Position numbers: made by a program. Below, one piece after another: positions 6,001 to 9,000 of a stretch of DNA of 16,033 nt (positions within the stretch are counted from its first letter, which is position 1; each line of letters begins with the position of its first letter). The stretch lies in IMG/VR virus record IMGVR_UViG_2778261151_000016, positions 1 to 16,033 of that record. One strand, 5' to 3'. Source of the DNA: a virus (lineage: Duplodnaviria > Heunggongvirae > Uroviricota > Caudoviricetes).

Positions 6001-9000
6001 CTTTAAAAGCTGTGGTATGGGAAGACATTAAAAAAAACGATGACGAGTTTGTCGCATTGCCTCTTCTTAACGTTTCGCTTTCGGCTGGAAGCGGTAGCTG
6101 CGAGATAGAAGAATCATCAGAGTTCTCTTTGGTTTTCAGAAAGTACTATCTGAAAAAGATGGGGGTAACTGAAAGTTCTGCCAAGCTGGTAAGGGTAACA
6201 GGTCAAAGCATGGAACCAACTCTTCACGATGGCGATGTTGTTGGTGTTAACACACAAGATACCACCATCAGAGATGGTAAAACCTACGCTATTTGCCAGT
6301 CTGATTTGTTGCGAGTAAAAACATTAATCGCCACTCCTACATCGGTGATAATCAGATCAATAAATCGCGAAGAGTACCCGGATGAAGTAATGGATAGAGA
6401 TGAATTTCATAAAACCGTAAGGATTATTGGCAGAGTATTCTGGTCATCGCATAGCTGGTAACCAGTGGCCTGAAGAAACGTTTGGGTGAGGAGGATAGAT
6501 GGCGTTCACTGACCTTGAATATCAAGCGGTCAAAAAAGAAGTTCACCAATTCATTGAAAGCATAAGGCCGCCTGAACATATCCGCAATGAACTGGATATT
6601 GTTTATAGCATCAATGACCAAACGATAGATATCGGCGAACAGCGCCCCGTGTGGCAGGGCAACCCAGGTGAAACAAACATCCTGCCATCAGCAAGAATCA
6701 AGTACATACGTTCTCTGGATAGATGGAAAATCTATTGGATGCGGAAGGATATGAAATGGCATCAGTACAGTACTGAACTTTCGCTGACTGATGCGCTTGA
6801 GCTTGTGCGTGCTGACCCGGATTGCTGCTTCTTCGGATGAGTGAAGAGACATTTTGGTGATGGATGGTCGCAGAAGTGCGGCCTTTAATGTAATCGAAGA
6901 AAAGTAATCCTTGTAAAACTTGATTTGACTGTATTGTCACAAAGAAAGGAATCAACGATCGTTTCTTGGGTCTTGATTTGTTTTGACGATCAAATTAGTA
7001 TTGCCTCATCAACTGTATGAGGCTTTTTTATGCAAACCAAAAGCTACACCATCAAAGCATTTCAGGACTTCTTACAGATGCTTCCTGAGCTTGGTATCGT
7101 CAATGATGCTACAGCCCGCAATCTCCGTGACTCTTCCCTGCGCCTTCTTACTGTTCTTGGGTCGGATTTCACCGATGCCGATATCCGTGATTATAGCGTT
7201 GCCAACTTAGCAAGTTCGTACGCAGACTCAGCAGAAAGCAAACCCTCTGAATCATCTTTGCAGGCATACAAAAGCCGAATGCAAAGTGCTATTGATAAAT
7301 TTATCTCCTACCAGAATGGTGAGATTAATGTGTCAGTTGGTGATGTAAATAAAAAAAAGGAGCGTAAAAAGATGGCACCTAAGAAGAAGGCGGTAGCTGA
7401 CGTACAGGTTGGTGTAAAAACATTTGAACTGCCGATTCCATTGCGCGGAGATCTTATCGTCACCATTGGCAACCTGCCTCGCGACCTGACAAAAGATGAA
7501 GCCAAGCGTATCAGTCTGATTGTGGAATCTTTTGCGATGATTGATGGCGGAACAAAAGAATAAAGCCCCGAGGGAACGGGGCTTTTTGGGTCGGAAATAT
7601 ATCCAGTATTTCCGAAGTGTATGGAGGATTACCTACCGCTACACCCTTGGCAACCGCAAGCCAAGGATAGCGGTTCTCCCAACAAACTACAACCTGTTCG
7701 GGTAAACAGGCTGTATACAAAAACAGGAGAAAAGCTATGGCTCACGATGTTAATCGCGATGACTTCATCTACGAACACGACAAGCCGGTTTATGTGCGCA
7801 GTTACTGCCGCATACGTTTCGGTGAGCTCGAACATGTTCGTCAGCACTTCCGCTCTTATCCGAGCTGCTGAAAATAACTAAATCTCAAACCCGGCTTCCG
7901 CGCCGGGTTTTCTTTGCCTCGCGATCGTCCCCCATATTTAACAGCCGCAAATGCGGTAAACCACGAACCAACACGCCAGCAATACAGCGCCCCCCTTCCA
8001 ATACCGACCAATCCGCAACATTTACAAAAATAAAATACCTTTATTATCCATCACTTATAACTTATTTATCAGAATTCATGAATTAAGTTATTGATCACCG
8101 CTATAACCTAGGTTATCTTTAAGCCATCAGCAGGACGCACTACTCACCAGGGCGGTGAATATACAACGATTCGAATATGAATCTACGGCGCTGACAAAGC
8201 GCAATAACCAAAGTGAACTTTGGGGTGTGGTGAAGGGTTCATGGACGGGAATATGTCGCACGTAAAGCGGCGAGGCCTGCGGGACTATTGCCGAATTGAA
8301 GTAGGCCGAAACAGGTCAAAATGGGTCTCCCACCTACCACACCACCAAAGTTCATCAGGAGGTCTATATGACACGCAGAACTCAGTTCAAAGGCAATTCA
8401 CGTTCTCGTCGTCGTGAGCGTTTAAAGGCAAAGGCATTAGCTAACGGCGTGCTGGCCCGCGAAGAAGCAATAAGTTCAGAAGTATTACACCGCCCTACTC
8501 TAAGCAGAGCGCAGATTCAGGCTAAAGGTACTCACGAAACGCCTGAGCGCATAGAAGACGCTAAGCCAATTAAGTTCATGGCACAGGACGTGATCTGGCA
8601 ACAGAAAGAATACAGACGCAATCTGGAGCGAGCGGCCATTGTGTACGCGAATGAGTTTGGACATAAGCAACCAGAAACTGGTGTATGTCTTCCAAACGTA
8701 GCCATTTACGCGGCAGGCTACCGGAAATCAAAACAACTGACAGCGAGGTAATTATGGATTTAAATAAATTAGAAGCGTTATTAGAAGCATCAGTAAAAAA
8801 TTTTATCTCAGTACTTGATGAAAAAACTGAAGATATTAAGAAGGCAAATATTGTCGAACTTGTAAAAACAAGAGCCAGTACATTTGATCATCTTCCTGAT
8901 GATGTCCGGTCAGCGGCAATTCGCGTATATGTAACGGCACTAAGCAATAGTGAACCACCAATTGATGAAGAATCAAGAGATATTCAGAAAAAACGGTTTG

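Follow-up and report, generated by a model that had tools for sequence, protein, structure and literature searches.

We analysed a 16,033-nt stretch of viral DNA (IMG/VR record IMGVR_UViG_2778261151_000016; hereafter the window), which represents the early region of a mosaic lambdoid prophage resembling Shiga-toxin (Stx) phages, and focused on the cargo slot between its cI-type repressor gene and the OL/PL operator region. Read along the plus strand, which corresponds to the leftward direction of lambda, the window carries cI, this slot, OL/PL, N, recombination genes, and a lambda-type xis and int. The slot itself holds two open reading frames (ORFs), ORF-A (113 aa) and ORF-B (177 aa), followed by a structured leader, a conserved 44-aa ORF that we call s44, and a terminator (Table 1). 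We have very little doubt that these genes make up two unrelated accessory units rather than one cassette, the first being ORF-A and the second ORF-B together with the leader and s44.

Table 1. Features of the cI-to-PL slot and its two boundaries, in window coordinates.
Feature	Position	Strand	Basis or remarks
cI-type repressor gene, HTH_3 + Peptidase_S24	5724-6461 (stop 6459-6461)	+	Pfam: Peptidase_S24, E 3.9e-18; HTH_3, E 2.6e-7
Shine-Dalgarno (SD) sequence of ORF-A, GAGGAGG	6488-6494	+	read in the sequence
ORF-A, DUF3024/PDC-S43 protein, homologue of 933W L0084	6499-6840	+	Pfam, PHROG, PADLOC, comparison with 933W
Terminator-like hairpin GGTCGCA/TGCGGCC with weak T-run	6866-6889 (hairpin 6866-6883)	+	-12.1 kcal/mol
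Repeat CTTGATTTG, copy 1	6919-6927	+	CTTGAT/ATCAAG motifs recur upstream of ORF-B homologues
Two GATC (Dam) sites, 31 bp apart	6957-6960, 6988-6991		second site within the promoter spacer
Predicted sigma-70 promoter of ORF-B, TTGATT-17-TAGTAT	6973-7001	+	hexamers and spacing conserved in Salmonella and Yersinia homologues
Hairpin GCCTCAT/ATGAGGC holding the ORF-B SD (GAGG, 7019-7022), then T6 and ATG	7003-7029 (arms 7003-7023)	+	-10.1 kcal/mol
ORF-B	7030-7563	+	N-domain, residues 1-100; lysine-rich linker, 101-128; conserved C-terminal motif, 129-177
P1, hairpin and U5 directly after the ORF-B stop	7562-7587	+	-15.5 kcal/mol; terminator or attenuator
Structured leader	7588-7736	+	fold energy, covariance-model match, pair counts
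Leader helix P2	7593-7599 / 7607-7613	+	folding
Leader helix P3, GGAG..ACCGCTA..CCTTGGC / GCCAAGG..TAGCGGT..CTCC	7623-7679	+	folding
Leader helix P4	7689-7714	+	folding
LexA-box-like palindrome GGCTGTATACAAAAACAGGA, overlapping the s44 SD	7709-7728		best such site in the window, 16.3 bits
SD of s44, AGGAG	7725-7729	+	in leader
s44, conserved 44-aa ORF, the true partner of ORF-B	7737-7871	+	codon-position substitutions, conservation, co-occurrence
Terminator closing the immunity-region cargo slot	7887-7916	+	-15.8 kcal/mol, z -3.9; 85% match to the 933W tM region
OL/PL operator region, outer boundary of the slot	8035-8125 (about)		operator-like repeats in common with OR, 5647-5717 (D1, D2, D15, I3, I9)

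Two units in one cargo slot

A preliminary interpretation made from the DNA alone (the sequence-only reading) had placed an unrecognized two-gene cassette here, in the position of rexAB in lambda. Much of that description holds. The segment does occupy the cI-to-PL slot, which is known as a hotspot of mosaicism and houses RexAB in lambda and BstA in phage BTP1 (PMC8585504); both genes are present where they had been drawn; ORF-A follows the cI stop codon by 37 nt behind a strong GAGGAGG SD; and homologues of ORF-A and of ORF-B recur in the same slot of other prophages. Its outer limit has to be moved, however. The strong terminator said to end the cassette at 7590 exists, as a hairpin with a U-tract (P1), but the unit runs on past it, since the leader, the 44-aa ORF and a further terminator follow before OL/PL. 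The impression that the segment is more AT-rich than its flanks was also mistaken: its GC content (0.445 over 6462-7590) compares with 0.424 for cI, 0.473 for the window and 0.390 for 8752-9770, and it is the 189-bp spacer between ORF-A and ORF-B alone that is GC-poor (0.370).

The independence of the two units follows from three observations. First, the stretch that the window and phage 933W have in common here is only 6444-6884 (96.8%), which comprises the last 18 nt of cI, ORF-A (L0084 in 933W) and the hairpin at 6866-6883; the cI genes themselves differ. Second, in a context survey of 72 IMG/VR loci plus reference phages, which yielded 81 ORF-A copies, the gene that follows ORF-A belongs to the ORF-B family in 25 related loci, while 53 loci have other cargo, including L0083-Stk-L0081 (in which Stk matches PD-T4-6), an NYN-domain protein, two kinds of ParA-like ATPase, a HicB-containing set and several unassigned pairs. 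Third, ORF-B occurs without ORF-A elsewhere (see below), and ORF-A lies upstream of only five of the 38 distinct ORF-B proteins.

This independent distribution, together with a conserved promoter in front of ORF-B and terminator-like hairpins between the genes, makes it very improbable that ORF-A and ORF-B form one RexAB-like defence cassette, co-expressed with cI from PRM and acting as a pair. Such a cassette would account for the position of both genes between cI and PL on the cI strand, and for the recurrence of the combination, which we found at 99-100% identity in six complete E. coli genomes and in phage SH2026Stx1 and, with a 40%-identical ORF-B paralogue following ORF-A, in two VT2-Sakai-type loci (L076 and L077). 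None of the proteins, on the other hand, has homology to RexA or RexB, or a membrane segment. Of the proposed co-expression with cI, the part that concerns ORF-A is supported in that this gene is placed for co-transcription, whereas ORF-B has hairpins upstream and a predicted promoter of its own.

ORF-A had been considered unassignable to a family, but it matches Pfam DUF3024 (PF11225) over residues 4-113 (108.7 bits against a gathering cut-off of 24.9, E 2e-31), the PADLOC hidden Markov model PDC-S43 over its full length (E 7.2e-42) and the PHROG family phrog_3467. Its AlphaFold2 model (predicted local distance difference test score 87.5) consists of a helix, a five-strand sheet and a second helix, and as it has no enzymatic motif the protein probably acts by binding another protein. 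PADLOC candidates are called by association with neighbouring defence genes, so that the PDC-S43 label may merely mirror the neighbours of ORF-A, such as Stk (PD-T4-6), and not an activity of its own. We found no relevant literature on DUF3024, L0084 or the locus tags and no functional paper on PDC-S43, which is listed in one strain survey.

A cI-size ORF (224-258 aa, one split copy included) lies directly upstream on the same strand in 77 of the 81 ORF-A copies. These upstream ORFs represent at least six sequence types, and Peptidase_S24 was present in all seven types tested. Since its translation is predicted from the cI (PRM/PRE) transcript, ORF-A is probably made in the lysogen, and from its context it appears to be an accessory gene that forms the fixed left border of a cargo site whose contents vary. 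That it is dispensable for a working phage is indicated by a locus in which it is cleanly deleted between the SD region and the terminator hairpin (L113, ~3800-3880), by VT2-Sakai, where the 500-bp gap after cI holds no annotated ORF-A (L141, 2499-3001), and by truncated 84-aa variants in other loci.

Two outlying loci carry relatives of ORF-A in other surroundings. In Erwinia aphidicola (L145, 3071-6130), DinI, an 80-aa protein, DUF333, DUF3024, a 153-aa protein, a Stk-like kinase and a 47-aa protein form a row next to tail genes, where the prophage ends. The 'dinI-tail fibre' cargo site, which in Salmonella is the place of ORF-B and s44, is thus used by the ORF-A/Stk block as well, and the block and the ORF-B/s44 unit occur in the same two kinds of site. 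In L144 (77-1104), a HigB toxin/HTH_3 antitoxin pair is immediately followed by a distant DUF3024 protein, 44% identical to ORF-A, which is a further example of DUF3024 behind an Xre-type helix-turn-helix (HTH) protein.

ORF-B, its promoter and its fold

The hairpin that follows ORF-A sits exactly at the mosaic junction, the match to 933W stopping at 6884, and the same GGTCGCA/TGCGGCC hairpin, with T8 or T6, also follows cI in L113 and L111; it is probably the leaky end of a PRM-cI-ORF-A transcript. Beyond it, ORF-B appears to be a transcription unit of its own. Its predicted promoter scores below the threshold of a generic promoter scan; the window and its Salmonella and Yersinia homologues nevertheless share a CTTGATT -35, a 17-nt spacer and a TAnnAT -10 (6996-7001 in the window), and phage YP3 keeps the -10 as TATAAT with a degenerate -35. 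The two direct repeats of CTTGATTTG pointed out in the sequence-only reading are present in the 189-bp spacer (6919-6927 and 6972-6980; simple arithmetic gives a chance expectation of ~0.06 9-mer repeats per 189 bp), and the -35 (6973-6978) falls inside the second copy.

GATC sites are a further feature of these promoters. In the -130 to -1 region we counted 50 where 13.6 were expected (25 loci), a ~3.7-fold excess that is to be read as an enrichment and not as a probability because the loci are related. In all enterobacterial classes of ORF-B homologue the sites usually form pairs 18-31 bp apart, often within palindromes that overlap the -35 or the spacer, and they suggest methylation- or SeqA-sensitive control, or an operator with a GATC core. 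GATC clusters likewise occur in the promoter region of Mu mom. A LexA-like site at 6929-6944 was considered and rejected, since its ACAG half contains a mismatch and the upstream regions of the homologues do not conserve it.

The CCTCA...TGAGG hairpin just before ORF-B, whose 3' arm is the ORF-B SD, is conserved in six of six aligned homologues and with its T6 resembles a terminator too. Transcription is predicted to start at ~7008, ~7 nt past the -10 and inside the 5' arm, so that only read-through transcripts from upstream would form the SD hairpin.

ORF-B matches phrog_2602 and no Pfam, NCBIfam or PADLOC family, so that here, in contrast to ORF-A, the earlier failure to assign a family largely stands. 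Its N-domain is modelled as a bundle of four helices; the structures that resemble it most are tyrosine-recombinase core-binding domains, and it shows a T..N and YKSR..SA...F..Y pattern at the aligned helices. ORF-B thus has the core-binding/SAM-like N-terminal domain of tyrosine recombinases, whereas their catalytic domain (R-K-H-R-H/W-Y) is absent, with only 49 residues past the linker and no Phage_integrase match. On this modelled fold, we interpret ORF-B as a derivative of a tyrosine-recombinase core-binding domain without the catalytic domain. Sequence comparisons point in the same direction but weakly, and several results weigh against this interpretation. The sequence likeness to integrases is sub-threshold (E 0.43 for lambda Int), as are the 22 matches to five Phage_int_SAM families among 80 ORF-B relatives; a pairwise hhalign comparison was not significant; and the best-conserved part of the protein, its 49-residue C-terminal motif (KTFELPIPLRGDLIVTIGNLPRDLTKDEAKRIS.IVESFA), was modelled with low confidence. 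In addition, the N-domain has an acidic pI of 4.7, an uncommon property among core-binding domains that bind DNA, and basic character is confined to the linker (including the lysine-rich KKKERKKMAPKKK of the sequence-only reading, at residues 108-120). DNA binding by ORF-B is for this reason something that we infer and not a result.

The ORF-B family is large and unannotated. A word-index search found 53 clusters in Enterobacterales, and an exhaustive search with a profile recovered 1,126 (E <= 1e-3), extending to Alphaproteobacteria, with nearly all members 160-200 aa long and of the same layout. Frameshifted copies (121-aa and 63-aa pieces) occur in the E. coli prophages L046, L062 and L084 (~4532-5100), with s44 retained, and the 63-aa piece probably explains the separate family phrog_36396.

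A large and uniform family with a three-part architecture and a lysine-rich linker might also be expected of a nucleoid-associated or silencing-type protein of mobile elements, of H-NS-like layout, beside which the small ORF would lie incidentally; stand-alone copies of the gene, with a long upstream region, are indeed present in some alphaproteobacterial genomes. We give this explanation very little credence, as the N-domain resembles a monomeric core-binding bundle and not a coiled coil, the C-terminal motif is not basic, and nearly all enterobacterial members keep the small ORF and leader together with ORF-B.

s44 and its structured leader

In 71 of 84 loci a small ORF begins on the ORF-B strand 150-175 nt past the stop codon of ORF-B, and such an ORF accompanies at least 32 of the 38 distinct ORF-B proteins. 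These ORFs, which range from 40 to 57 aa across the family, align on a common core and fall into three classes: class 1, to which s44 of the window belongs, class 2 (57 aa) and class 3 (44-46 aa). Substitutions in s44 are concentrated at third codon positions (e.g. 16 synonymous versus 3 nonsynonymous), and s44 is therefore a real gene under purifying selection; it is 81-84% identical where ORF-B is only 45% identical. The predicted protein is hydrophilic and neutral (grand average of hydropathy -0.90), with no hydrophobic window. All 49 members of its cluster are named 'hypothetical', and the class-1 variant in VT2-Sakai is H0092.

A PDB profile search with the small ORF found nothing. A zinc-binding peptide was rejected, as the Cys and His residues of s44 are not conserved in L076 or L139 and a treble-clef-like CxxC is present in the class-3 small ORF only; a stand-alone integrase arm-binding domain was not supported (2% probability by hhalign against the lambda Int N-domain). 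Two competing gene calls cover the same region, namely an 86-aa ORF (7621-7881, plus strand) that overlaps the leader and s44 in another frame, and VT2-Sap22, an opposite-strand GeneMark prediction in VT2-Sakai that spans the corresponding leader and s44. Both are probably spurious calls that mask the small ORF and its leader in annotations.

The 175-nt intergenic region between ORF-B and s44 folds with a minimum free energy of -76.7 kcal/mol (z -7.2). A covariance model of the leader (R1), built from ten class-1 and class-3 relatives of which none has the leader type of the window, gives a full-length plus-strand match to 7588-7736 (33.9 bits, E 1.2e-5 in 384 kb) and none in loci that carry other cargo. 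In the window-type leader 88% of cells are paired, compared with 28-44% in slid controls, and the covariation score lies above those of all 500 shuffles. Two points tell against a conserved RNA: covariation is moderate, 59 of 500 shuffles containing at least as many pairs with changes on both sides, even if these counts are understated because the model misaligned the window-type P3b helix; and the palindromes of the leader may be protein-binding DNA sites instead of RNA helices. The class-2 leader is a different RNA with stronger support (96% paired, with 11 compensatory pairs, 0 of 500 shuffles), and its many invariant U-G pairs indicate a sense-strand RNA. A single RNA family for all leaders was rejected, as R1 finds the window-type, class-1 and class-3 leaders and misses class 2.

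Rfam gave 0 matches at E <= 1 within 5300-8800, and the leader was likewise rejected as a known prophage small RNA (sRNA), as the AgvB/AsxR and Pas sRNAs map to the late region. Nor was P2 accepted as a recombinase core site, since its inter-arm spacer varies from 3 to 7 nt among relatives, which better fits a hairpin loop. The U-tract of P1 is reduced to three in class-3 relatives. Within the leader, CUCC at 7676-7679 has two alternative predicted partners, the s44 SD and the GGAG of 7623-7626, with which it forms helix P3a, and class 3 has the counterpart triplet CAGG/CCUG/CAGG. This suggests a switch composed of SD, anti-SD and anti-anti-SD.

This alternative pairing, along with the folded leader itself and the strong conservation of s44, could also be explained by a toxin-antitoxin or addiction module, in which s44 would be a toxin silenced by the leader or by an antisense RNA and ORF-B its regulator or antitoxin; CcdAB, HicAB and DUF4160/DUF2442 pairs do neighbour the alphaproteobacterial homologues. 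The details do not fit any of the familiar types well, and we regard such a module as improbable. On the one hand, s44 is unlike typical type I toxins in being hydrophilic and neutral, no antisense promoter was found, and the invariant U-G pairs of the class-2 leader fit a sense-strand RNA. On the other hand, there are no type III-like repeats (no direct repeats were listed in the leader), and a 175-nt gap with a terminator between the genes is atypical for type II pairs.

The LexA-like palindrome over the s44 SD was scored with a matrix of 28 SOS boxes. Its 16.3 bits equal the lower quartile for these boxes, while maxima from shuffled windows have their 95th percentile at 15.7, and its position is conserved in class-1 and class-3 relatives (8.7-16.3 bits). 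Tandem CTGT-N8-ACAG palindromes lie just before s44 (7694-7709 and 7709-7728), and the second differs by one base, within the core, from the umuDC SOS box. Being palindromic, the site is indistinguishable by sequence from RNA helices P4 and P5.

The main rival to our interpretation builds on this box: ORF-B and s44 would be an SOS-wired pair, a non-cleavable DNA-binding protein with a small LexA-controlled partner (possibly an antirepressor), that tunes prophage or satellite induction or cross-talk instead of serving in defence. The two roles are not incompatible, and the conserved position of the box is matched by the setting of the unit, which adjoins S24 repressors or directly follows dinI, by the GATC-rich palindromes in ORF-B promoters, and by the precedent of LexA-controlled small antirepressors behind terminator-like palindromes in Gifsy phages (PMC3121763). 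We nonetheless consider it unlikely, if clearly less so than a toxin-antitoxin module. The box is absent from class-2 and VT2-Sakai-type leaders, which also counts against an SOS input in our own interpretation, and no clear promoter was found before it in the window; the unit is dispensable, patchy within each phage type and located at cargo sites, not at core regulatory positions; and homologues occur in alphaproteobacterial chromosomes without phage genes nearby. Moreover, a tblastn search of 50,697 phage records with ORF-B (s44 was not searched) gave 50 matches, none of them in a Gifsy record, which led us to reject the idea that ORF-B is IrsA or belongs elsewhere in the Gifsy dinI operon.

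Setting, distribution and comparison with known systems

The nearest records to the window are E. coli O39:NM F8704-2 (99.9%) and phage SH2026Stx1 (99.3%). Its cI, with a likely ATG at 5754, is transcribed divergently from cro (5418-5663), which shares the minus strand with cII and the replication genes. At the other end of the slot, the terminator at 7887-7916 appears from its sequence to be the counterpart of 933W tM, and the N gene (8368-8751) is 99.4% identical to 933W N. Two further ORFs of the minus strand deserve mention: a 968-aa primase/helicase ORF (949-3855) has an apparent intein-like insert (GKA|CPL...THN|TEV) in its P-loop region, and a 213-aa ORF (156-797), beside the replication genes at the left end of the window, resembles an HTH-containing insertion sequence transposase OrfA.

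Outside the lineage of the window, ORF-B relatives occur both in the same slot and in others. An ORF-B paralogue, VT2-Sap23 (39% identical), lies between cI and N in Salmonella phage Oslo, in VT2-Sakai-type phages and in Stx1-converting phages, and the VT2-Sakai-type paralogue is present in 234 of 5,426 complete E. coli genomes. In Yersinia pseudotuberculosis prophages a homologue lies between cI and N, directly after cI and without ORF-A, and one Yersinia homologue is preceded by a KilA-N/BstA_C protein. ORF-A is also missing in Salmonella myovirus-like prophages, at whose end, beside pepN, the unit directly follows dinI, and in Yersinia phage YP3, where the homologue adjoins gin. Islands of ~12 kb from Enterobacter and IMG/VR (L012/L131-L138) carry ORF-B homologues, again without ORF-A, between an AAA_25 primase-type replication gene and capsid genes; they encode an integrase, protease, portal and small terminase and have no tail genes, and we presume the Enterobacter islands to resemble capsid-forming satellites of the phage-inducible chromosomal island (PICI) type. 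The small ORF that accompanies ORF-B in these islands is zinc-ribbon-like. Finally, chromosomal homologues in Alphaproteobacteria are found near CcdAB, HicAB, DUF4160/DUF2442 and Brx-type genes. The sites at which the unit occurs are typical cargo positions.

Taken as a whole, our explanation of the slot has, in our judgement, an even chance of being right; it builds on the anatomy, conservation and independence of the units, the fold of ORF-B and the selection on s44. Unit 1 would supply ORF-A, a small soluble alpha/beta protein made from the cI transcript, which probably binds another protein. Unit 2 would be an autonomous 'moron' (~6973-7916), in which a sigma-70 promoter with Dam sites would drive ORF-B, a putative nucleic-acid-binding regulator or sensor. 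Transcripts that pass the hairpin after ORF-B would enter the ~150-nt folded leader, and this leader may gate the translation of s44, the most conserved part of the unit and its likely effector; in the subtype found in the window, the LexA-like box would overlap the ribosome-binding site of s44. The hairpins at 6866-6883 and 7003-7023, of which the latter would sequester the ORF-B SD, may insulate unit 2 from the cI transcript.

The unit would then serve in defence, exclusion or interference, with DNA damage or replication as a possible trigger. A role in mobile-element conflict or defence is a tentative proposal, to which we give somewhat less than an even chance. The precedents of RexAB and BstA in the slot, the BstA_C neighbour in Yersinia, and the toxin-antitoxin and Brx genes near alphaproteobacterial homologues speak for our explanation as a whole; several observations speak against it. 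The PADLOC check suggested in the sequence-only reading returned for ORF-A only a candidate label, PDC-S43, and no model for ORF-B or s44; some alphaproteobacterial ORF-B homologues lack the small ORF; and frameshifted copies of ORF-B exist. It is more doubtful still that the unit is a new type of three-part system made up of an integrase-descended nucleic-acid sensor, an RNA switch (with LexA or Dam input in some subtypes) and a tiny conserved effector directed at competing phages or satellites. If true, such a system would include the VT2-Sakai-type Stx phages and span over 1,100 protein clusters, reaching from Gamma- to Alphaproteobacteria.

Comparison with known systems separates what is familiar in this slot from what is new. 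The slot and the idea of lysogen-expressed cargo are already established, and ORF-A has a known domain, DUF3024; it matches the models of both DUF3024 and PDC-S43, and a function has been demonstrated for neither family. Lambda RexAB, BTP1 BstA and 933W Stk lie in the same slot and on the same strand as the window cargo, 3' of the repressor gene, and in 933W Stk with L0083 and L0081 occupies the exact place of ORF-B and s44 after the same ORF-A. RexA, RexB, BstA and Stk nevertheless have no sequence or domain relation to the window cargo (Pfam, PADLOC). Lambda RexB is a multi-pass membrane protein, whereas the highest 19-residue hydropathy window in ORF-A, ORF-B and s44 is <=0.81, and although the position of RexAB is matched, ORF-B has its own predicted promoter, independent of PRM.

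Nothing described in the libraries or papers that we searched corresponds to the ORF-B unit, and it belongs to none of the recombinases, RexAB, the known toxin-antitoxin types, the PADLOC systems searched or Rfam. With tyrosine recombinases ORF-B shares the core-binding-like fold, but without a catalytic domain and with sequence similarity below family thresholds; the integrase-derived repressors MrpR (SPbeta) and SroF (phi3T) retain both domains, the C-domain being catalytically dead, whereas ORF-B does not. Like s44, the small ORFs of Gifsy dinI-gfoA/gftA, 186 Tum and N15 AntC lie behind terminator-like palindromes and an SOS-box-like site, and the Salmonella unit likewise directly follows a dinI homologue. 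We detected no homology to these antirepressor modules, however; ORF-B is absent from Gifsy phages, the SOS-box-like site is not universal in the ORF-B family, and GfoA and GftA are larger than s44, judged by comparison with the 146-aa Tum (PMC3121763). A long folded leader with an anti-SD stretch precedes s44, as in Mu com-mom and type I toxin genes, to whose leaders that of the window has no sequence or Rfam relation.

Defence genes that are expressed in the lysogen have been proven to reside in the cI-N slot of lambdoid prophages, as RexAB, BstA and Stk attest, and in Stx-type phages the slot is organised as a constant DUF3024 gene followed by exchangeable cargo. One recurrent cargo is the compact uncharacterised unit described here, in which a core-binding-like protein that lacks the recombinase domain is combined with a conserved structured RNA and a protein of 40-57 aa. 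As a paralogue is present in the Stx2 phage VT2-Sakai and in the 234 E. coli genomes noted above, any role in exclusion, induction or Stx-phage behaviour could be tested directly in well-studied strains.

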